Of a stretch of DNA of 39,429 bases, positions 22,283-29,985 are shown in pieces. This stretch comes from an uncultured bacterium (GTDB lineage Bacteria > Hydrothermota > Tepidihabitantia > CAYHGV01 > CAZWJY01): positions 1 through 39,429 of the forward strand of contig CAZWJY010000001.1 in the NCBI GenBank assembly GCA_964634335.1, in the 5' to 3' direction. Position 1 is the stretch's first letter. Each line of letters opens with the position of its first letter. The position numbers and the translations under genes were made by a program. Under the pieces are notes generated by a model, which was not told the DNA's origin, did no database searches, and worked only from the letters and a program-made list of their open reading frames with translations.

Positions 22283-22310
22283 ACCTTATTCCAAAAATTG
22301 CAAATGTCAA
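22283..22310 (-). promoter_or_regulatory. possible promoter TTGACA-N16-TAAGGT, 5 nt before ATG 22277
   Basis: On the minus strand, TTGACA is at 22310-22305, overlapping the stop of the upstream gene, and TAAGGT is at 22288-22283. Confidence 0.35.
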
Positions 22311-23995
22311 CTCTCTAAGAGCTTTATTATCCTTTTCTTGAGTTCTCCCCACTTTACCAAGCCTTTCCTTTCTATTCTGAATATAGCCAAATAAAAATCA
22401 CCAAAAGCTATCCTGTTGCTTGTCATCTCTATACCTTTAAAGATTTTCAAGCAATTTTCAAAGATTTTGAATTCTAAAGGAAAGGAGAATACTACGAGAT
22501 AATATTTAGGGAATCTCTTCAAAGAGAAGGTAGTTCTCCTCTCTTTTATGAACTTTCTCATCACTTGATAGGCAAGTCTTATCTGTTCCCCTAACTCCTC
22601 AGGAGACATCTCCATCCTCGATTTTGTATCCAAAAGTCCATAGAAGAAGGTCTTTACAAAATCCTCAGGGATCCTTCTCCTCTTCAATCTCTTCTTCACT
22701 TCTCCAAACTTCTCCTTGGAAAGTTTAGGAAAGGTGCCTGTATAATCTCTGAATTCTCCTATTACAGGTCTCAACCTCTTTGCGATCTCCTCATAGATTT
22801 CTGTAGGATGAATAAACCTTCTCCTATCCACTCTTATCACTATCCCATTAGTCTCTTGAGTGAGGTCTCCAGCAGGGATGGGTGAGCGTTCTAAGGATAA
22901 GACCTCAAATCCTCTACCTTCTAATACCTCAGCACATTTCAGACCTACATCCCCCTTGACTCTATTCTTCTCTGTTACAATAGTTATTCTAAGTTCATCA
23001 GGGGTTCCAAGGATGAATTGGGTGTAGAGATGAGGGATTCTATAATTACGGTGGTCAGCTAATAGTCTTGGCAGAATAGTCTTATGATAGGTTTCGTCAT
23101 CAAGGTACTCTACTTTTTCTAAGGTCTCTTTCCCAAAATCGAGGATCCCTCTCTTTATCCTCTCCCTTTCTGCTTTTCCCAATGGATTCCCATTTCTATC
23201 CGTGATTTCTATTCTGTATACTCCAATCCCATCCTCTGTGAAGAACTGCTTAACAAATTTCTCCTGAAATCCCCCACTCACCTCTCTCAAGACTCCCAAG
23301 ACATCCTTGAGAGAAATCTTTGATGCATAGCCTGCCACAGAGACTGTGGTAAGGTGTTCCTTTACTGTCTCTATATTTCTCACCCTTGCTTGAATCTCTC
23401 CGGTTTTCCTTACCCTCTGTTGCATCTTATAATTATTGTAGATCTGTTCTACTAATGTGGAGATACTCCTCTCCTCAATATAAGACTCTGGTCTACTTAA
23501 AAAGAAGGCACCTGCCTCATTAAGGAGTCCTTTTGCTTCTCCCTTCTTTGCTCTTTTTAAAAGAGCCCTCTTCACTTCCTCATACCTCTTCACCTTTTGG
23601 CTCAATTTTTGCATCAATAGCCTTTTCCATTCATCTTTTATAGCAGCGATTAAAAAGTCATGAACTATATGTTTTGCCTCCTTTTTGAAGGATTTCCATA
23701 TTTCCCTATTTGGACATTCTATCTCTGTGCTGACAAATCCCAGTCTCTTCCTCTTTATACTTATTCCAGCTACATAGGAGATATTAAAATTTCTACCATG
23801 GAAGACTGCAGTTACACTTTCTAAAAAACCTTCCCAATCAGGTCCTAAGACAGCAAAGGTAATGGGTTTATCCTTAGAAAATCTATAGGGAATTTCCTGA
23901 TATATCTGGACCTCCCCTTTCTTGTCAAACTCTTCCATAAGTTTAAGGCATATCTCTCTATCCTTCTCAGGGAGTTTCTCTAAACTCTCTTCCAT
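22307..23995 (-). CDS. hypothetical cytoplasmic protein with about four ACT-like modules
   Basis: The 562-aa protein has no TM or signal peptide. Four segments (residues ~40-115, ~205-290, ~325-400 and ~490-560) show a beta-alpha-beta-beta-alpha-beta-like hydrophobic pattern, e.g. 'ITFAVLGPDWEGFLESVTAVFHGRNFNISYVAGISI'. No catalytic motif was recognised. Confidence 0.45.
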   Translation of the reverse strand: MEESLEKLPEKDREICLKLMEEFDKKGEVQIYQEIPYRFSKDKPITFAVLGPDWEGFLESVTAVFHGRNFNISYVAGISIKRKRLGFVSTEIECPNREIWKSFKKEAKHIVHDFLIAAIKDEWKRLLMQKLSQKVKRYEEVKRALLKRAKKGEAKGLLNEAGAFFLSRPESYIEERSISTLVEQIYNNYKMQQRVRKTGEIQARVRNIETVKEHLTTVSVAGYASKISLKDVLGVLREVSGGFQEKFVKQFFTEDGIGVYRIEITDRNGNPLGKAERERIKRGILDFGKETLEKVEYLDDETYHKTILPRLLADHRNYRIPHLYTQFILGTPDELRITIVTEKNRVKGDVGLKCAEVLEGRGFEVLSLERSPIPAGDLTQETNGIVIRVDRRRFIHPTEIYEEIAKRLRPVIGEFRDYTGTFPKLSKEKFGEVKKRLKRRRIPEDFVKTFFYGLLDTKSRMEMSPEELGEQIRLAYQVMRKFIKERRTTFSLKRFPKYYLVVFSFPLEFKIFENCLKIFKGIEMTSNRIAFGDFYLAIFRIERKGLVKWGELKKRIIKLLES

Positions 23996-24082: not shown

Positions 24083-25111
24083 ATGAGAAGGAGAGTGCTG
24101 GTGGCAATGTCTGGAGGTGTAGACTCCTCCATAGCTGCTCTTATACTTAAGGAATCAGGATATGATGTGATAGGGGTCACTCTCAAACTCTTCCCCTCTA
24201 ATGGGATAGAGGACGCAAGAAGAGTAGCAGCAGAGATAGGTATACCCCATTATGTCTGGGACCTCCAGGAAGTTTTTGAGCAGAGGGTGGTTAAAAATTT
24301 TTTGGAGGAGTATAGGAGGGGAAGAACTCCAAATCCCTGTGTCCTGTGCAATAGGGATATAAAATTTGATGCCTTGCTAAAGAGAGGGAAGGAGATAAAA
24401 AGGGACTTCATAGCCACAGGACATTATGCCAGGGTCTTCTATGATTATAAAATTAAAAAGTATAAACTCTTCAAGGGGAAATATAGGGATGAGTCCTATT
24501 TCCTCTATCTGCTAAATCAGGAACATCTGAGCCATAGCCTATTCCCCTTGGGAGAGCTAAATAAGGCTGAGGTGAGAAGGATGGCAGAAAGGCTTGGATT
24601 AAGGGTAGCAGATAAACCCTCATCCCAGGAGATATGTTTTATCACTCATAACCACTACTCCTTTATAAAAGAGAAGATAGGTGGGAGACCCGGTCCTATC
24701 TTTGATACAAAGGGGAACTATCTCGGAGAGCATAAAGGTATAGCAGGGCATACCATAGGACAGAGAAAGGGGTTGGGTATATCCAGGGGGAAGAGGATGT
24801 ATATTGTTAAAATAGATGAAAAGAGGAATGCCATAATCTTGGGGGAGGAGAAGGAGGTTTATGGAAAATCACTAACAGCAAGGGATTTGCATCTCATTGC
24901 TATGGAAGAGTTGGATACTCCTATGGAGATTGAAGCAAAGATAAGATATAATAGTAGACCATCCCAGGCTCTCCTCACCCCTTTGGATAAGAGAAGGGTA
25001 AGGATAGATTTTGAGTCTCCTCAGTGGGCTATTACCCCTGGACAGGCTGTGGTCTTTTATAAGAATGGAGAGGTAGTGGGCGGAGCTACTATAGAGGAGA
25101 GAATAGAATGA
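24083..25111 (+). CDS. mnmA: tRNA 2-thiouridine(34) synthase
   Basis: It has the PP-loop 'VAMSGGVDSS', 'PNPCVLCNRDIKF', 'ATGHYAR' and 'DESYFLY'. Length is 342 aa. Confidence 0.95.
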   Translation: MRRRVLVAMSGGVDSSIAALILKESGYDVIGVTLKLFPSNGIEDARRVAAEIGIPHYVWDLQEVFEQRVVKNFLEEYRRGRTPNPCVLCNRDIKFDALLKRGKEIKRDFIATGHYARVFYDYKIKKYKLFKGKYRDESYFLYLLNQEHLSHSLFPLGELNKAEVRRMAERLGLRVADKPSSQEICFITHNHYSFIKEKIGGRPGPIFDTKGNYLGEHKGIAGHTIGQRKGLGISRGKRMYIVKIDEKRNAIILGEEKEVYGKSLTARDLHLIAMEELDTPMEIEAKIRYNSRPSQALLTPLDKRRVRIDFESPQWAITPGQAVVFYKNGEVVGGATIEERIE

Positions 25112-25521
25112 GATACAGATACATAAATCATACAGCAGATATAGGGTTCGAAATCTATGGAAGGGATTTAAAGGAGCTCTTTAAAAATGCTGCCTTTGCC
25201 CTATTTGATAATATGACAGAACTGAGAAATGTCCAGAGAAGAGAGAAGAGAAGAGTGATTCTCTCCTCAGATACCTTACAGGAACTTTTTTTAGATTGGC
25301 TCAGAGAACTCTTATTTATCTTCAGTACAGAGTTCTTTATCCCTAAGGAGATAGAGATGATAACCCTTAAACAGAAGAGATTAGAAGCAGAACTCTCTGG
25401 TGAGGTCTTTGATAAGAAAAGGCACAAAATAAAGATTGAGATAAAGAATCCTACCTATCATATGTTCTCCTTTAAAAAGATACCTGAGGGTTATACTGCA
25501 AGGGTAATATTCGATACATAG
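25108..25521 (+). CDS. archease
   Basis: The protein is 137 aa. 'YRYINHTADIGFEIYGRDLKELF' carries the archease HTAD(I/V) signature. It has an ATGA overlap with mnmA. Confidence 0.75.
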   Translation: MRYRYINHTADIGFEIYGRDLKELFKNAAFALFDNMTELRNVQRREKRRVILSSDTLQELFLDWLRELLFIFSTEFFIPKEIEMITLKQKRLEAELSGEVFDKKRHKIKIEIKNPTYHMFSFKKIPEGYTARVIFDT

Positions 25522-25536
25522 GAGTTACAGGAAGAT

Positions 25537-25677
25537 TTAAGATTCAAAGAAAGGGTCCTCTCTCTCCAGCCCTGCTCCCATACACTCATAATAGTCAGGG
25601 CACTCCTCACAACAGGTATCCTTCAATTTCCCCAGCTCCTTACATTCCTCATAATAGGGACAGATTTCACAACACAT
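25537..25677 (-). CDS. small Cys-rich protein B (46 aa, not in the ORF track)
   Basis: I translated it by hand as MCCEICPYYEECKELGKLKDTCCEECPDYYECMGAGLEREDPFFES. GGAGGA lies directly upstream of ATG 25677. It is a paralogue of the adjacent 58-aa ORF. Confidence 0.55.
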   Translation of the reverse strand: MCCEICPYYEECKELGKLKDTCCEECPDYYECMGAGLEREDPFFES

Positions 25678-25683
25678 ATCCTC

Positions 25684-25860
25684 CTATCTCTTAAAATACT
25701 TCCTCTTCTTTATAGCCCCTTCTCTTGTCTTTGTTCTACTTATCGTTCCTTCCAACTCCTCCATACAAGTCTCATAGTATTTACACCGTGGGCAGCAGTC
25801 CTCTGTCAATTTACCTTCAGCCTTACATTTTTCATAGGCTGGACAGGCACGGCAACACAT
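25684..25860 (-). CDS. small Cys-rich protein A (58 aa)
   Basis: The sequence is MCCRACPAYEKCKAEGKLTEDCCPRCKYYETCMEELEGTISRTKTREGAIKKRKYFKR. ATG 25860 lies 8 nt after AAGGAGG, and the GTG start used by the ORF track (25869) sits inside that SD. Confidence 0.6.
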   Translation of the reverse strand: MCCRACPAYEKCKAEGKLTEDCCPRCKYYETCMEELEGTISRTKTREGAIKKRKYFKR

Positions 25861-25865
25861 CCCTT

Positions 25866-26696
25866 TCACCTCCTTTTTAGAGAAAGGATAGCCTCTTTTA
25901 AAATCCCTGCTACTACTCCCCCATAGGCTGTTTGAGGAAATACTAAGGGGTTATACTCTACTATATCAAGCCCTATAACTTTTAAAAACGAAAGACCTCT
26001 CAGTGATTCTCTCAGTTCCTCATAAGATATCCCTCCAGGCTGGGGTGTAGCTACTGCTGGCATCAGACTCAAGTCAAGCACATCCAAATCTATGGAGAGA
26101 TACACCCACCTATCTCCAATCTCTCTCTTCACCTCTTCCATATACTCTAATACCCTAAATTTATAAAGATGAGCCACAAAGTCAAGCTCTTCTTTGCTGA
26201 TGGAACGGATACCGAGTTGAAAGATATTCTCTTTCCCTATAATCTCTGAGACCCTCCTCATCACTGTAGCATGACAATATCTCTCTTTCAGATACTCGTC
26301 CCTCATATCCGTGTGGGCATCCAATTGGATAACAGCCAGGCTGGGGTATATCCTTTTTGCAGCCTCTATTATAGGTAGAGTAATAGTATGTTCACCCCCT
26401 AAGAAGATGGGGATTTTCCTATCCTTAAAGATTCTTAGAGCCTCTTCCTCCACTCTTTTTAAGGGACTTGTGGGAGACTCGAAGGAGAACTCTATATCTC
26501 CTAAATCACATACCTTTACTAACCCAAGGTCTCTATCCTGATAAAGGCTATAGGACTCTATATTCTCTGAGGCTCTCCTTATATATTCTGGACCAAATCT
26601 TGCTCCGGGTAGGAAGGAGCTGGTCCTATCGAGAGGGCATCCCAGGACTACAACCTCTGCATCTTTATAGGATGTGTTAGCATACCAGAGTCTCAT
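25866..26696 (-). CDS. speB: agmatinase (arginase/ureohydrolase family)
   Basis: The Mn-binding motifs 'GGEHTIT', 'QLDAHTDMRD' and 'SIDLDVLD' are present. Length is 276 aa. Confidence 0.85.
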   Translation of the reverse strand: MRLWYANTSYKDAEVVVLGCPLDRTSSFLPGARFGPEYIRRASENIESYSLYQDRDLGLVKVCDLGDIEFSFESPTSPLKRVEEEALRIFKDRKIPIFLGGEHTITLPIIEAAKRIYPSLAVIQLDAHTDMRDEYLKERYCHATVMRRVSEIIGKENIFQLGIRSISKEELDFVAHLYKFRVLEYMEEVKREIGDRWVYLSIDLDVLDLSLMPAVATPQPGGISYEELRESLRGLSFLKVIGLDIVEYNPLVFPQTAYGGVVAGILKEAILSLKRR

Positions 26697-26705
26697 AATA
26701 CAGCC

Positions 26706-26733
26706 AAGATAAGGAATTTTAAATCTCTGTCAA
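26706..26733 (-). promoter_or_regulatory. sigma70-like promoter TTGACA-N16-TATCTT, 9 nt before ATG 26696
   Basis: On the minus strand, TTGACA is at 26733-26728 and TATCTT at 26711-26706. No SD lies in the 9 nt before the start. Confidence 0.45.
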
Positions 26734-26736
26734 GGT

Positions 26737-27384
26737 CTAACGAATAACCCCCAGCCAGTCCCTTAATAGGAACTGAAGTCTACCAATGAGCAAGGAGATT
26801 CTTGCCATAAAGGTATATCCAAATGAAGCACCAAAACCGACCATTATAAAAATTATCCCCAGCCTTGCGGCAGGTCTTAAAGCACCCTTCCGTTCCACAG
26901 AGAAGAAGAAATATGCAAGGGTAGACAGGACACCTATAAGGAGTATAATAGACCAGAGGATTCCCAAGTTGCCCGCATACCAGGAGGCGAAGTTCGCTTT
27001 GGTAAGGATGGTAGCCTGAATCTGACGGAGGAAGTTGGTCTCTATGGTCGCAGGTATAGATACCCCCATAGAATAACCCATAACCACTGCAATGGGCAAT
27101 CTGACCATCCAGGAGAGCCTCCTTATAAATCTCGTAAAGTATAAAACCCCCAAAATTGTTGGTATCATAAGCCACCAGTTTAAAGAGGGATTGGCTCTCA
27201 ATGGGTCCACAAGCTTTGGTTTTAAAAGAAGATGCCAGGTCATGGCTATACTATATCCATTTGCTACACCAACAAAGAGATGCTCGGCAAATCTGTATAA
27301 GGGATTGTCCTTATATAAGAAGGAGAAGATACATAAGGTAAGAAAGGCAGCTACCCACACCCAGATATTTGTAGAGAGACTCAC
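26737..27384 (-). CDS. polytopic membrane protein D of the uncharacterised cassette
   Basis: The 215-aa protein has ~6 hydrophobic helices. Its GTG start forms a GTGA overlap with gene C. The C-terminal 'PAARLGIIFIMVGFGASFGYTF' resembles 'TAAKRGIIFGVGLGMVATSLKI' of gene B. Confidence 0.6.
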   Translation of the reverse strand: MSLSTNIWVWVAAFLTLCIFSFLYKDNPLYRFAEHLFVGVANGYSIAMTWHLLLKPKLVDPLRANPSLNWWLMIPTILGVLYFTRFIRRLSWMVRLPIAVVMGYSMGVSIPATIETNFLRQIQATILTKANFASWYAGNLGILWSIILLIGVLSTLAYFFFSVERKGALRPAARLGIIFIMVGFGASFGYTFMARISLLIGRLQFLLRDWLGVIR

Positions 27385-28247
27385 TTCCTCCTCCTTATAA
27401 TAAAGTAGCTGATATTTCCAATAATGATAAAGATAATTATGAGAAAATGGGCAAAGGTCTGGGCACTCATCGCCTGGGTAGCTGGTCGGTATCTCTTCAC
27501 TCCACAGTGTTCTGCCACAAGTTCCTCGTATTCTGCTGCCCCCTTCATACCAGCGAGTAGACCACTAAACTGCCCTGACTGGAGATAAGGATAGAAGTCT
27601 GCAACAGATACCGCAGTAATCCCCGCCCCTACTCTCAATCCATACCTGTTCTGGGAATAGGCAAGATAGGAGAAAGGGGTACTACTCCCTGAAAGGGAGA
27701 CAAGGATAGCTACATCACGGAACTTCTTTATATGTCTCATAAGCTCTAAGGTATCTGTCTTATTGTGATAATAATCAGTGGGATATACCCCTGCTATACT
27801 CTCTCCCATACCCAATAGCCATGCTAAGGGAGGCCATGTCCAGCCTAAGAAGACATAATCCCTCCCATATATGACGCTATCCTCTCTGGTTTCTGCATTC
27901 TGGTTAATCTCCCTTGATGCATCTTTAATGGCATTCTCAGCAAGACCTATCCCTGTTATTGTCCAGGCAAGGACGCATACCCTTATATGCCTTTTGAAGG
28001 CATGCCTTAGTAGAGCCTTTGCCATAGGGTGGAGTTCTGGTGCAGTGTTGGGGTCATAGTCCACGGATATCATAAGGGCTTTGGAATAGGGAGGAATGGA
28101 GTCTATCACCCGAAATAGTTTCTCTGCCGGAGGGGAGGGATGGATGGGTATGATTATATGAACAATAAGGGGGATGGTTACCACTACCCCGAGTATGAGA
28201 TAGATTATTCTCCTATCTATCCTGCCCAGCCTCTCCCATATACTCAT
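27381..28247 (-). CDS. bitopic membrane protein C of the uncharacterised cassette
   Basis: N-terminal and C-terminal TM helices bracket a ~230-aa soluble domain. I chose the start at ATG 28247, which gives an ATGA overlap with gene B and has GGAGGTGGAGG upstream. The ORF track starts 6 codons earlier. Confidence 0.6.
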   Translation of the reverse strand: MSIWERLGRIDRRIIYLILGVVVTIPLIVHIIIPIHPSPPAEKLFRVIDSIPPYSKALMISVDYDPNTAPELHPMAKALLRHAFKRHIRVCVLAWTITGIGLAENAIKDASREINQNAETREDSVIYGRDYVFLGWTWPPLAWLLGMGESIAGVYPTDYYHNKTDTLELMRHIKKFRDVAILVSLSGSSTPFSYLAYSQNRYGLRVGAGITAVSVADFYPYLQSGQFSGLLAGMKGAAEYEELVAEHCGVKRYRPATQAMSAQTFAHFLIIIFIIIGNISYFIIRRRK

Positions 28248-28903
28248 CCTCCACCTCCAAGCCATCCCCTCTCAATCCCCAGAATTATCTTTAAGGATGT
28301 AGCTACCATCCCCAGACCCACCCCAAATATTATACCCCTCTTTGCTGCTGTATTGGGAATATTAAGTATCCATTCAGCAAAGGCAGGGAGTTTTGGGGTA
28401 ATGTAGTAACCCGTAGGAACCACTGCAAGCATTACAATAAAGGCAGCCCCTAAGAGAAGCGCAGCCTCTAAGTTCCTTGCCCTGAAGGCTCTATATGCAG
28501 CAGAGGTCATAAAAAAGGCTAAGAGGGCGAACATCGTCCCACCAAGAGGAATCACCACATTCATATAGATGGTCTGTATATCAAAATGGAAAGTCCCTAC
28601 GCTTGTAGGGATTACCCCTCCCCCTTTTACTCCCCCCAAGAGACCAATAATGGCTGTTATTATGAGACTGACAAAGAAGACATAACTGTAAGGCCAGTAC
28701 TCCTTTCTTCTTTTTATCTTTTCTAAATGGTGGTTTATAATACTACCCAGACCCAAGACAAGGGCAAAGGCAGTAATGACAGGGAGGACCCGGGTCACAA
28801 AGGCATTATCTACATTCTGCACAGCACGGTGGGGAACAAAGAAGGGAACCATAGCAATCCAGCCAAGGATGAAGACGATGGTTAAGGGTATTCTCCTCTT
28901 CAT
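28244..28903 (-). CDS. polytopic membrane protein B of the uncharacterised cassette
   Basis: The 219-aa protein has ~6 hydrophobic helices and a Gly-rich C-terminus. It has an ATGA overlap with gene A. Confidence 0.6.
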   Translation of the reverse strand: MKRRIPLTIVFILGWIAMVPFFVPHRAVQNVDNAFVTRVLPVITAFALVLGLGSIINHHLEKIKRRKEYWPYSYVFFVSLIITAIIGLLGGVKGGGVIPTSVGTFHFDIQTIYMNVVIPLGGTMFALLAFFMTSAAYRAFRARNLEAALLLGAAFIVMLAVVPTGYYITPKLPAFAEWILNIPNTAAKRGIIFGVGLGMVATSLKIILGIERGWLGGGG

Positions 28904-29985
28904 TCAAATAGACTAAGGACAGGAAACTTTGTGAGTAGCCCCACAATGCTTCCCAAAAGTATCAATCCTGTAATGATGAGCTTCCCCATATCCTGTCCCC
29001 TTAGAGTCCCTAAGAGGACAGGCTCCCTTGATATATAGGCAGAGGCTGCATAGAGTTCTTCACCTATAAGGGTATAGTCGCAGGCAGTTATGAAGAATGG
29101 GAGCTGAGCAGTAGAGTCCGTGCCTGCTATCTGTATAGCCCCTGTCGATGCCCCTGTCTCAGCAAGGATTAGAGATTCTGCCCAGAACATCCCTAATAGA
29201 AAAATCGTAGCTGGATTTTCTCTTACCATTATTCCATCAACAGCAGCAGCATAAGCAAACTGACTGGTAGTAACAAAGAATACACTATCAGGATTGAAAG
29301 CATCCGGTCTACCTACTGAACTATAGGACTCCTTTACTATCTCCCTTGCTACAGTATAGACGATAGGGTCTCTATTAGGAACCATTAAGGGAGTATCATA
29401 CTGGGCTGCCTTCTTTGCCACCTCTCCCAAAATGTTCAAAGAGGCAATGGTAGCGACATCCCTCATATCAGATGTCCCAGGAATGTAGAGGATAGGCTTG
29501 CCCATCTCTGTAGCTCTCCCTATCGCCTCCTCTACTGCATCAAGACCCGCTATCCTTCGTATAAAGAATCTCTTCCCCCCTTTAGCAGATTGGATAAAAC
29601 CCACAAAGAGGAGGATAATCACTATGGTTCCTACAAGGACATTCACCCTTTCTGTGTGAAACCACTGGGGAGAAGAGGTAACCACATTTGAGACCTCTGA
29701 AGCTACCCTCTCCCCTTCCCTCTTTGCTACTACCCGATAGTAGTATCTCACACCATCCTTTGCCCTATCATCCTTAAATACCCTTCTCCCCCTTCCTACA
29801 AACCCAACCTTTTTAAACTCTCCCTTTTCTTCTCTTCTTTCAATATCATAGCCCTCAAGGAGAGTATCGTCCTTAGAAAGTCTCCACTGGATAGTTATAC
29901 TTCCACCCTTATCATTCGGGGTATCTTTGGCAATTACACCTGTAGGAGGTGAAATCTGGGAGAGGAGGAAGAAGAAGAGGGTCAT
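28900..29985 (-). CDS. membrane protein A of the uncharacterised cassette (FN3-like ectodomain + TM + soluble domain + TM)
   Basis: An N-terminal hydrophobic segment is followed by a ~90-aa beta-sandwich-like region ('GGSITIQWRLS...GYDIERRE...GVRYYYRVVA'). Then come a TM ('VLVGTIVIILLFVGFI'), a ~200-aa domain and a C-terminal TM. It has an ATGA overlap with the MazG-like gene. Confidence 0.6.
   Translation of the reverse strand: MTLFFFLLSQISPPTGVIAKDTPNDKGGSITIQWRLSKDDTLLEGYDIERREEKGEFKKVGFVGRGRRVFKDDRAKDGVRYYYRVVAKREGERVASEVSNVVTSSPQWFHTERVNVLVGTIVIILLFVGFIQSAKGGKRFFIRRIAGLDAVEEAIGRATEMGKPILYIPGTSDMRDVATIASLNILGEVAKKAAQYDTPLMVPNRDPIVYTVAREIVKESYSSVGRPDAFNPDSVFFVTTSQFAYAAAVDGIMVRENPATIFLLGMFWAESLILAETGASTGAIQIAGTDSTAQLPFFITACDYTLIGEELYAASAYISREPVLLGTLRGQDMGKLIITGLILLGSIVGLLTKFPVLSLFE

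Follow-up and report, generated by a model that had tools for sequence, protein, structure and literature searches.

Paired eight-cysteine mini-proteins encoded directly downstream of agmatinase belong to a previously unnamed protein family

Small Cys-rich proteins that bind metals have been described in several forms, and some of them resemble in part the products of two short genes on a 39,429-nucleotide contig of an uncultured bacterium of the Hydrothermota (GenBank assembly GCA_964634335.1, contig CAZWJY010000001.1, positions 1 to 39,429; hereafter, the window). The two genes lie on the minus strand directly downstream of speB, the gene for agmatinase, and encode mini-proteins termed here A and B. 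In desulforedoxin, a vicinal Cys–Cys pair supplies two ligands of one Fe, and a vicinal pair also serves one centre in cluster N2 of complex I; the arrangement C-x2-C-P-x4-C, with Pro after the second Cys, is found in Wbl proteins and MutY. Desulforedoxin, rubredoxin, and the archaeal C(P)xCG zinc-finger micro-proteins are, like A and B, tiny (~36–60 residues), and in those proteins CxxC knuckles hold one metal. In the literature that we searched, CX2CX5C recurs as a [4Fe-4S] ligand motif in NUBP1, Dna2, RseC, and SPASM domains, and small CxxC proteins of Methanosarcina and Haloferax bind Zn (PMC12704099). Micro-proteins of this general kind are thus already known; new here are the family signature, a pair of basic and acidic paralogs, and a link to agmatinase. 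The A/B family was previously unnamed, and we found for it no Pfam or NCBIfam model, solved structure, informative annotation, or describing paper, literature searches for the eight-Cys family by motif and by agmatinase association having returned none.

A (58 residues, MCCRACPAYEKCKAEGKLTEDCCPRCKYYETCMEELEGTISRTKTREGAIKKRKYFKR) and B (46 residues, MCCEICPYYEECKELGKLKDTCCEECPDYYECMGAGLEREDPFFES) both begin with MCC and carry two CC-x2-C-x5-C units apiece within N-terminal domains of the sequences MCCRACPAYEKCKAEGKLTEDCCPRCKYYETCM and MCCEICPYYEECKELGKLKDTCCEECPDYYECM, respectively, followed by tails with a net charge of +5 in A and −3 in B. The eight Cys residues of A (C2, C3, C6, C12, C22, C23, C26, and C32) show no variation in profile-derived alignments. 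The two proteins are 43% identical overall and 53% identical across the 34-residue domain, and the half-motif TGYTGY-N6-TGY-N15-TGY occurs in the window four times, every copy inside A or B (0.00 expected from 100 shuffles). The first-pass annotation of the window, made from the sequence letters, had described two minus-strand open reading frames directly downstream of speB, each with its own GGAGG, as paralogs sharing a duplicated CC-x2-C-x5-C unit and bearing oppositely charged tails; its coordinates agree with ours, the half-motif count and the domain identity bear out the duplication and the paralogy, and the recomputed charges are the same. The open reading frame list places the start of A at GTG 25869 (61 residues), but family alignment identifies M-C-C as the true N-terminus. 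The remark that B is missing from the open reading frame track holds for lists with a 60-residue floor and not beyond them, and the expectation that a 46-residue B would be skipped by standard gene callers is contradicted by a near-identical contig from Guaymas Basin sediment (GBSed_10000317, locus L002), in which the gene caller of the Joint Genome Institute annotated both A and B.

Between the window and the related locus L001, the A gene differs at 24 of 177 nucleotides, 18 of them at third codon positions, corresponding to a ratio of nonsynonymous to synonymous substitution rates (dN/dS) of 0.043; across the family, A domains have a median of 0.15 and B domains one of 0.24. By these ratios, both genes are under purifying selection, for which the first-pass annotation had proposed to look, and we are in next to no doubt that A and B are real conserved proteins.

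Relatives of A and B were detectable only by hidden Markov model (HMM) search without a word index, single-sequence word-indexed searches having returned just one near-identical relative for each. A 34-column profile gave 44 matches at E < 1e-3 among 1.84e9 representative proteins, of which 43 are proteins of 39–77 residues with the domain at residues 1–34 and the remaining one is a eukaryotic repeat protein. When the family profile was run against 5.8e9 proteins, 71 clusters were recovered, all small, all annotated as 'hypothetical', and none with a Pfam domain; the HMM search for the Cys pattern that the first-pass annotation had called for therefore led to no already described family. Neither A nor B matched any NCBIfam family (June 2026; E ≤ 10), and at the same threshold in Pfam (2025) A had no match and B had spurious matches to KIF1B and Whib. 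Further members came from DNA pattern scans: a bare 8xTGY scan of genome contigs was noisy with poly-Cys and TGC repeats (3 true relatives in ~120 loci), and this noise disappeared once the metagenome was scanned with a pattern that included ATG. A pattern scan of a viral contig collection found no copy. In all, 150 unique sequences were gathered, which are stand-alone proteins of 39–103 residues with the domain starting at residue 1. Columns M1, C2, C3, C6, C12, C22, C23, C26, and C32 are nearly or fully invariant in the profile-hit alignments; in the larger set of 150 sequences, whose Cys columns are partly forced by the search pattern, P7 is kept in 71%, Y/F9 in 97%, L18 in 83%, P27 in 69%, and Y/F29 in 96%. 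The GC content of the host loci ranges from 29 to 67%, and the named hosts are metagenome-assembled genomes (MAGs) of Candidatus Omnitrophota, Auribacterota, and Atribacteria. The named hosts and their samples (Guaymas Basin sediment, a Black Sea MAG from 750 m, and Atribacteria) hint at habitats without oxygen.

The family falls into two subtypes. A-type proteins (30 unique) usually begin with MCCRAC and usually have Met after the last Cys, and their tails are acidic at the start and K/R-rich at the end, with an aromatic residue near the end in 12 of the 30. B-type proteins (120 unique) begin with MCC[ED]xC; their domain and tail are both acidic, and the last three positions include an aromatic residue in 72 of the 120. 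At speB-linked loci, the charge of the whole protein is −1 to +8 for A and −9 to −21 for B. Of the 23 distinct A-type genes, 22 come with 360 nucleotides or more of upstream sequence, and every one of these 22 directly follows an agmatinase homolog encoded on the same strand, which substantiates the synteny with speB that the first-pass annotation had suggested examining. These homologs are 42–52% identical to SpeB of the window, apart from those of L001 and L002, which are near-identical strains. A B-type gene follows directly downstream in 13 of the 22 A-type lineages, at a gap of −1 to 77 nucleotides and often in an arrangement that suggests translational coupling. Outside the speB–A–B triad, the neighbours are wholly different among three synteny groups: membrane proteins and DUF6754 upstream and archease downstream in the window, a convergent gene for a 700-residue propeller protein in a large high/low-GC group, and divergent RtcB and UvrC genes with rotamases downstream in the low-GC L123 group. 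Because the triad was kept while its other neighbours changed, selection appears to act on the linkage itself. The A-type gene of L123 (5834..5989, plus strand; 51 residues; MCCQVCNLFNICKNKNESCCEKCPYFDSCM..KKIKKKK) has a 6-residue linker and starts 2 nucleotides past speB. Such a 6-residue-linker gene (MCCQVCNLFNICKNKNESCCEKCPYFDSCMAMTK...KKIKKKK) also lies between speB and B in L124–L126, L132–L134, and L200; it was left uncalled by annotation pipelines and was found with a relaxed regular expression. Small proteins are systematically under-annotated, and in this lineage the A-type gene had been missed entirely by gene callers. One family member, at locus L079 of an Auribacterota MAG, lies 36 nucleotides upstream of a gene for pyruvoyl-dependent arginine decarboxylase, the enzyme of the preceding step, which makes agmatine, the substrate of agmatinase. 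We regard as established that these are real genes under purifying selection, forming a family with two subtypes and a conserved speB–A(–B) linkage; judged by gene context, A looks like an agmatinase-specific paralog and B like the generalist of the family, typically encoded behind a small basic protein.

Table 1. Positions of the two mini-genes, their Cys domains, the agmatinase gene, and candidate expression signals in the window.
Feature	Coordinates	Strand	Details
Mini-protein A gene	25684..25860	-	ATG 25860 to TAG 25684; 58 residues; A-type; 8-Cys domain and acidic-then-basic tail
Mini-protein B gene	25537..25677	-	ATG 25677 to TAA 25537; 46 residues; B-type; 8-Cys domain; acidic tail with FFES at its end
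Cys domain of A, residues 1-33	25762..25860	-	two CC-x2-C-P/K-x-Y-x2-C units with a 9-residue linker between them
Cys domain of B, residues 1-33	25579..25677	-	from family alignments; helices 9-15 and 29-35 predicted by AlphaFold
speB, agmatinase	25866..26696	-	276 residues; PF00491, E 9e-73; TIGR01230 equivalog, 242.9 bits (cut-off 174.3)
GGAGG, ribosome-binding site of A	25869..25873	-	adjoins speB stop TGA 25866..25868; 8 nt 5' of ATG 25860
GGAGG before B	25680..25684	-	overlaps A stop TAG 25684..25686; only 2 nt 5' of B ATG
Sigma-70-like promoter match, TTGACA-16-TATCTT	26706..26733	-	from consensus scan, in the 40-nt gap before speB; weak evidence

By its TIGR01230 equivalog score, the upstream neighbour of A is a genuine agmatinase; SpeB of the window matches PF00491 only and has no match to PF12640. 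A search of the linked SpeB proteins for conserved Cys gave no clear signal, C141 of the CHAT motif being Cys in 71% and Ser in the remainder. The gap between speB and A is 5 nucleotides in the window and 2 nucleotides in L123, and in L130 the stop of A and the start of B share one nucleotide. The GGAGG preceding B, given its overlap with the A stop and its closeness to the B start codon, fits termination–reinitiation better than independent initiation, and the gene geometry as a whole suggests that the genes are translationally coupled. The promoter-like match upstream of speB may be the start of a speB–A–B transcript.

AlphaFold2, run with the family alignments, produced models of moderate confidence (mean pLDDT, the predicted local distance difference test, of 72 for A, with 76–85 over the domain, and of 67 for B). 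In the model of A, residues 1–6 form a coil, 7–15 a helix, 16–28 a coil, and 29–41 a second helix that is followed by a disordered tail; C2, C3, C6, C22, C23, and C26 are predicted to be non-helical, and only the fourth Cys of each repeat lies in a helix. Each repeat would accordingly consist of a CC-x2-C knuckle and then a helix bearing the fourth Cys. The helical hairpin with a Cys-lined face proposed in the first-pass annotation is at odds with these models, and a twin CX9C/CHCH (Cox17-like) hairpin was rejected because three of the four Cys residues per repeat are modeled outside the helices. We consider a metal-dependent fold of the A/B domain to be likely. Taken together, the eight invariant Cys residues with a conserved Pro behind the third of them and a conserved aromatic residue, the predicted knuckle–helix repeat, the CX2CX5C ligand motif, the vicinal Cys precedents, and the apparently anaerobic hosts make Fe–S the likeliest cofactor in our rating: by analogy, we give one or more Fe–S clusters about an even chance, mononuclear Fe or Zn Cys4 sites a distinctly smaller one, and all other options together a smaller one again. 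Metal or cluster binding as such, suggested in the first-pass annotation, is a plausible reading; its metallothionein, Cu-storage, and disulfide-stapled readings find no specific support.

Comparison with individual families sets the A/B domain apart from each of them. Wbl proteins (PF02467) are, like A and B, small and contain C-x2-C-P-x4-C, and they also combine an N-terminal cluster region with a basic C-terminal tail, as in A. The weak Pfam Whib match of B (E 0.55; 11.3 bits against a cut-off of 23.6; no match for A) falls exactly on this motif, and Wbl membership was rejected; so was Wbl homology, since hhalign of the family against WhiB1 returned a probability of 0.45% over 12 columns comprising just C-x2-C-P-x4-C. 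The same ligand motif is common to MutY/EndoIII, NUBP1/Nbp35, and Dna2/AddB. In contrast to A and B, which have a duplicated motif with a vicinal CC in each copy and a 33-residue domain, Wbl proteins have a single motif, a distant fourth Cys, and a GVWGG turn, and they are confined to Actinobacteria. DUF2769 (PF10967), a Cys-rich family of anaerobes and archaea, is likewise uncharacterised, and one of its members is on record as a small protein of heat-stressed Methanosarcina (PMC12704099). Fourteen of 71 A/B members match the first 16 model positions of DUF2769 weakly, through a motif resembling C-x-C-x2-C-P-x-Y-x2-C. Membership was rejected, the best E value being 0.018 and P0060 scoring 11.1 bits against a gathering threshold of 22.8 over positions 3–16 of 57, i.e., one half-repeat only; A and B of the window have no match to DUF2769. 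Unlike desulforedoxin and the zinc micro-proteins, with which there is no sequence or profile similarity, A and B carry CC-x2-C-x5-C twice, and nothing there corresponds to the N-terminal position of the domain, the charged tails, or the link to agmatinase. No Fer4-type Pfam match, as expected of a 2x[4Fe-4S] ferredoxin, was found, and the Cys spacing differs from the CxxCxxCxxxCP of such ferredoxins.

Based on the gene context and the Cys signature, we infer metal binding, pairing of A with B, and an action on SpeB, and we tentatively favour, at somewhat below even odds, a metal- or Fe–S-binding pair that assists or regulates agmatinase. That A is functionally connected with agmatinase or with polyamine synthesis is the better bet of the two claims, and we hold it to be moderately probable. 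In the proposed scheme, A and B would be cytoplasmic proteins, each with a 33-residue duplicated N-terminal domain (M-CC-x2-C-P-x-[YF]-x2-C, a ~9-residue linker, and CC-x2-C-P-x-[YF]-x2-C) and a disordered charged tail, and the eight invariant Cys residues would jointly hold one or two metal centres. A single transcript would yield SpeB, A, and B, A immediately after SpeB and B after A, with translational coupling giving near-stoichiometric amounts of the three. A, with its neutral or basic domain and basic tail, would be the dedicated partner of agmatinase, and the acidic B would bind A electrostatically, perhaps also through the homologous Cys domains. The pair might then regulate agmatinase or help it mature in a metal- or redox-dependent manner, tying polyamine synthesis to the redox or metal state of the cell. 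Literature searches turned up no protein partner of agmatinase, and we know of none. What recommends the family for study is that it is coherent and widely distributed, with a simple signature, charge-complementary subtypes, and a very strong neighbourhood link to agmatinase; if metal or Fe–S binding and an action on SpeB were true, the pair would disclose a hitherto unrecognised point at which polyamine synthesis is controlled in anaerobic candidate phyla such as Omnitrophota, Atribacterota, and Auribacterota, and its domain would be a very small natural metal-binding scaffold.

Several observations weigh against this accessory or regulatory role. Adjacent genes do not by themselves prove that their products interact with SpeB physically or functionally. 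The usual metal of agmatinase is Mn2+, a poor fit to thiolate ligands, and the pyruvoyl-dependent decarboxylase beside the L079 member needs no metal, which together make a metal-chaperone version weak. A Foldseek search of the A and B models against the PDB gave no match, nor did a sequence profile search of the PDB at E ≤ 10. B is lacking in 9 of the 22 A lineages, including the closest relatives of the window and one entire high-GC clade. In the sister lineage (L001, L256, and L257), whose A protein is 90% identical to that of the window, the order is speB, A, and archease, a clean deletion of ~138 nucleotides having removed B; relatives that lost B retain a Shine–Dalgarno remnant (TAGGAGAATA), and in L001 and L256, compared with window positions 25470..25730, the A stop now lies 24 nucleotides from the archease stop. 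B is therefore dispensable. The A/B heterodimer suggested in the first-pass annotation gains from the recurrent speB–A–B order and the opposite charges, but it cannot be obligatory, as nine lineages have A without B. B-type genes also occur beside KamA-like, DUF4912, GGDEF, and ApbE genes, so that specificity for polyamine metabolism does not extend to the entire family.

Of the competing explanations, the one that survives best, though we think it unlikely, is that A and B are zinc-finger-like nucleic-acid-binding regulators, in which A would bind RNA or DNA, perhaps autoregulating the speB message in response to polyamines, and B, as an acidic decoy, would titrate A. That polyamines modulate translation is well known. 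The composition of A (two short Cys4 units, a linker, and a K/R-rich tail with an aromatic residue) invites comparison with two-knuckle nucleocapsid proteins and archaeal zinc-finger micro-proteins, a decoy role would suit the position of B-type genes generally behind a small basic protein (A or a ~50-residue basic family), and small Zn-binding CxxC proteins are common and often regulatory (PMC12704099). Nevertheless, Pfam scans of A, B, and the 71 members showed no similarity to known zinc-finger models, the domain of A is itself about neutral, a regulator encoded downstream of and translationally coupled to its target would be unusual, and the C-x2-C-P-x4-C spacing is better known from Fe–S sites.

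More doubtful still is a sharper version of the agmatinase-centred proposal, namely that A and B form a minimal Fe–S or metal-thiolate redox-sensing module that binds agmatinase and turns polyamine synthesis on or off, with A as effector and B as antagonist. Such a switch could, by analogy and with as little confidence, be likened to the antizyme/antizyme-inhibitor logic of eukaryotes, of which it would be a bacterial counterpart based on a cofactor, and the 33-residue domain would then rank among the smallest natural Fe–S-binding folds.

It is slightly less probable again that A and B, without any particular tie to the chemistry of agmatinase, are metallothionein-like buffers or metallochaperones for soft metals such as Fe(II), Zn, Cu(I), Cd, or As(III). 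Cys makes up 25% of the domain, which, like SmtA/BmtA, Cox17, and Csp, is Cys-rich with vicinal CC pairs, C-x9-C being readable in each repeat; the B operons of the Omnitrophota/Atribacteria type open with an ArsR/SmtB-family helix-turn-helix (HTH) gene, recalling SmtB–SmtA. Miller, Xu, and White reportedly described, in 2012, an Fe(II)-dependent agmatinase subfamily in methanogens. However, metallothionein and named Cys-rich Pfam models matched neither A, B, nor any of the 71 members, and unlike metallothioneins the A/B family conserves aromatic and Pro residues, which together with the strict spacing and the predicted helices point to a defined fold and not to a thiolate cluster. In the ArsR homolog of L119, the alpha3 site contains just a single Cys, and the linkage of all 22 A-type genes to speB would be left unexplained.

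A short Cys-rich peptide beside a ureohydrolase-superfamily enzyme is also the arrangement of SCIFF and other Cys-rich precursors of peptides that are made by ribosomes and modified after translation (RiPPs) with peptide arginases (PMC12703449), and an arginase-family enzyme could in principle convert Arg to ornithine on A/B precursor peptides, as KgrD or OspR does; this we judge improbable. KgrD (enteropeptin), a peptide arginase, is a PF00491 member whose site of action adjoins a modified Cys, SCIFF and 'SCCRRSCN' Cys-rich precursors are substrates of the other peptide-arginase family (PMC12703449), and most A-type proteins begin with MCCRAC and have Arg-rich tails. On the other hand, SpeB lies well over the agmatinase equivalog cut-off and outside PF12640, A has no invariant Arg (position 4 is mostly R, with some H or Q), its tails swap K and R and are in some cases almost all Lys, and B has few Arg. 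The conserved part is N-terminal without a leader and is predicted to fold, and no radical S-adenosylmethionine (SAM) enzyme, protease, or exporter is conserved at speB–A–B loci. SCIFF (TIGR03973) or ranthipeptide membership was rejected, as an NCBIfam scan of A and B gave no family and there is neither a radical SAM maturase nor a leader. The first-pass annotation had likewise recognised no SCIFF or named RiPP precursor, as the NCBIfam and Pfam scans confirm, and had noted no adjacent radical SAM or maturase gene, which agrees with both the window, where A and B have agmatinase, archease, MnmA, and membrane proteins around them, and the 23 A-type loci, across which no radical SAM gene is conserved; only Omnitrophota B-type loci carry an aminomutase of the KamA family, and this enzyme is no SPASM maturase. 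Least probable by far is that A and B are bioactive peptides (bacteriocins or toxins) that are secreted or disulfide-stapled, a reading for which only high Cys content and small size speak, considering that M-C-C is the conserved N-terminus with no signal peptide or leader, that neither transporter nor immunity genes form a conserved part of the surroundings, that the tails are highly charged and disordered, and that the reducing cytoplasm of apparently anaerobic hosts disfavours disulfides.

Away from speB, B-type genes usually come after another small, very basic protein. In loci of the Omnitrophota/Atribacteria type, the order is an ArsR-family HTH gene, a gene for a secreted acidic protein of ~125 residues, one for a very basic protein of ~50 residues, and B, with a KamA-family aminomutase, DUF4912, or a 416-residue protein without assigned function downstream. 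The ~50-residue basic protein (L119 2486..2641, plus strand; also L127, L183, L202, and L214), encoded directly before B, has the consensus LSxGLRKYIRRQKxxIKRxAKxKEEExxLxxELLxRFY and no Pfam or NCBIfam match; it may be a partner of the acidic B-type protein, analogous to A. In the Omnitrophota MAG of L119 (2863..6008, plus strand), B is followed by a gene for a KamA-family 2,3-aminomutase, whose scores stay under the cut-offs for lysine, glutamate, and arginine aminomutases, and by two genes resembling ATP-grasp ligases, which together may constitute a beta-amino-acid or peptide pathway. A long-tailed B subgroup of 87–103 residues (loci L154, L167, L208, L210, L232, L233, L235, L236, and L240) has a poly-Asp/Glu tail of ~50 residues with a net charge down to −46 and is encoded after a GAF–GGDEF diguanylate cyclase gene.

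On the downstream side of the triad in the window, the stop of B is separated by 15 nucleotides from the stop of the convergent archease gene (25108..25521, plus strand), after which comes mnmA. RtcB, an RNA ligase activated by archease, adjoins the triad in the unrelated lineage of L123 (3377..4930, minus strand); the recurrence of these two beside speB–A–B may be a coincidence. Upstream of speB (26737..29985, minus strand), genes for three predicted membrane proteins of 215, 294, and 219 residues without Pfam or NCBIfam match are followed by those for a DUF6754 protein and a MazG-like pyrophosphohydrolase; the frames overlap or abut, and the five genes look like one uncharacterised operon. 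Farther off, a 562-residue open reading frame (22307..23995, minus strand) shows a faint ACT-domain match (E 1e-3, under the cut-off) and is kept in the close relative L002.

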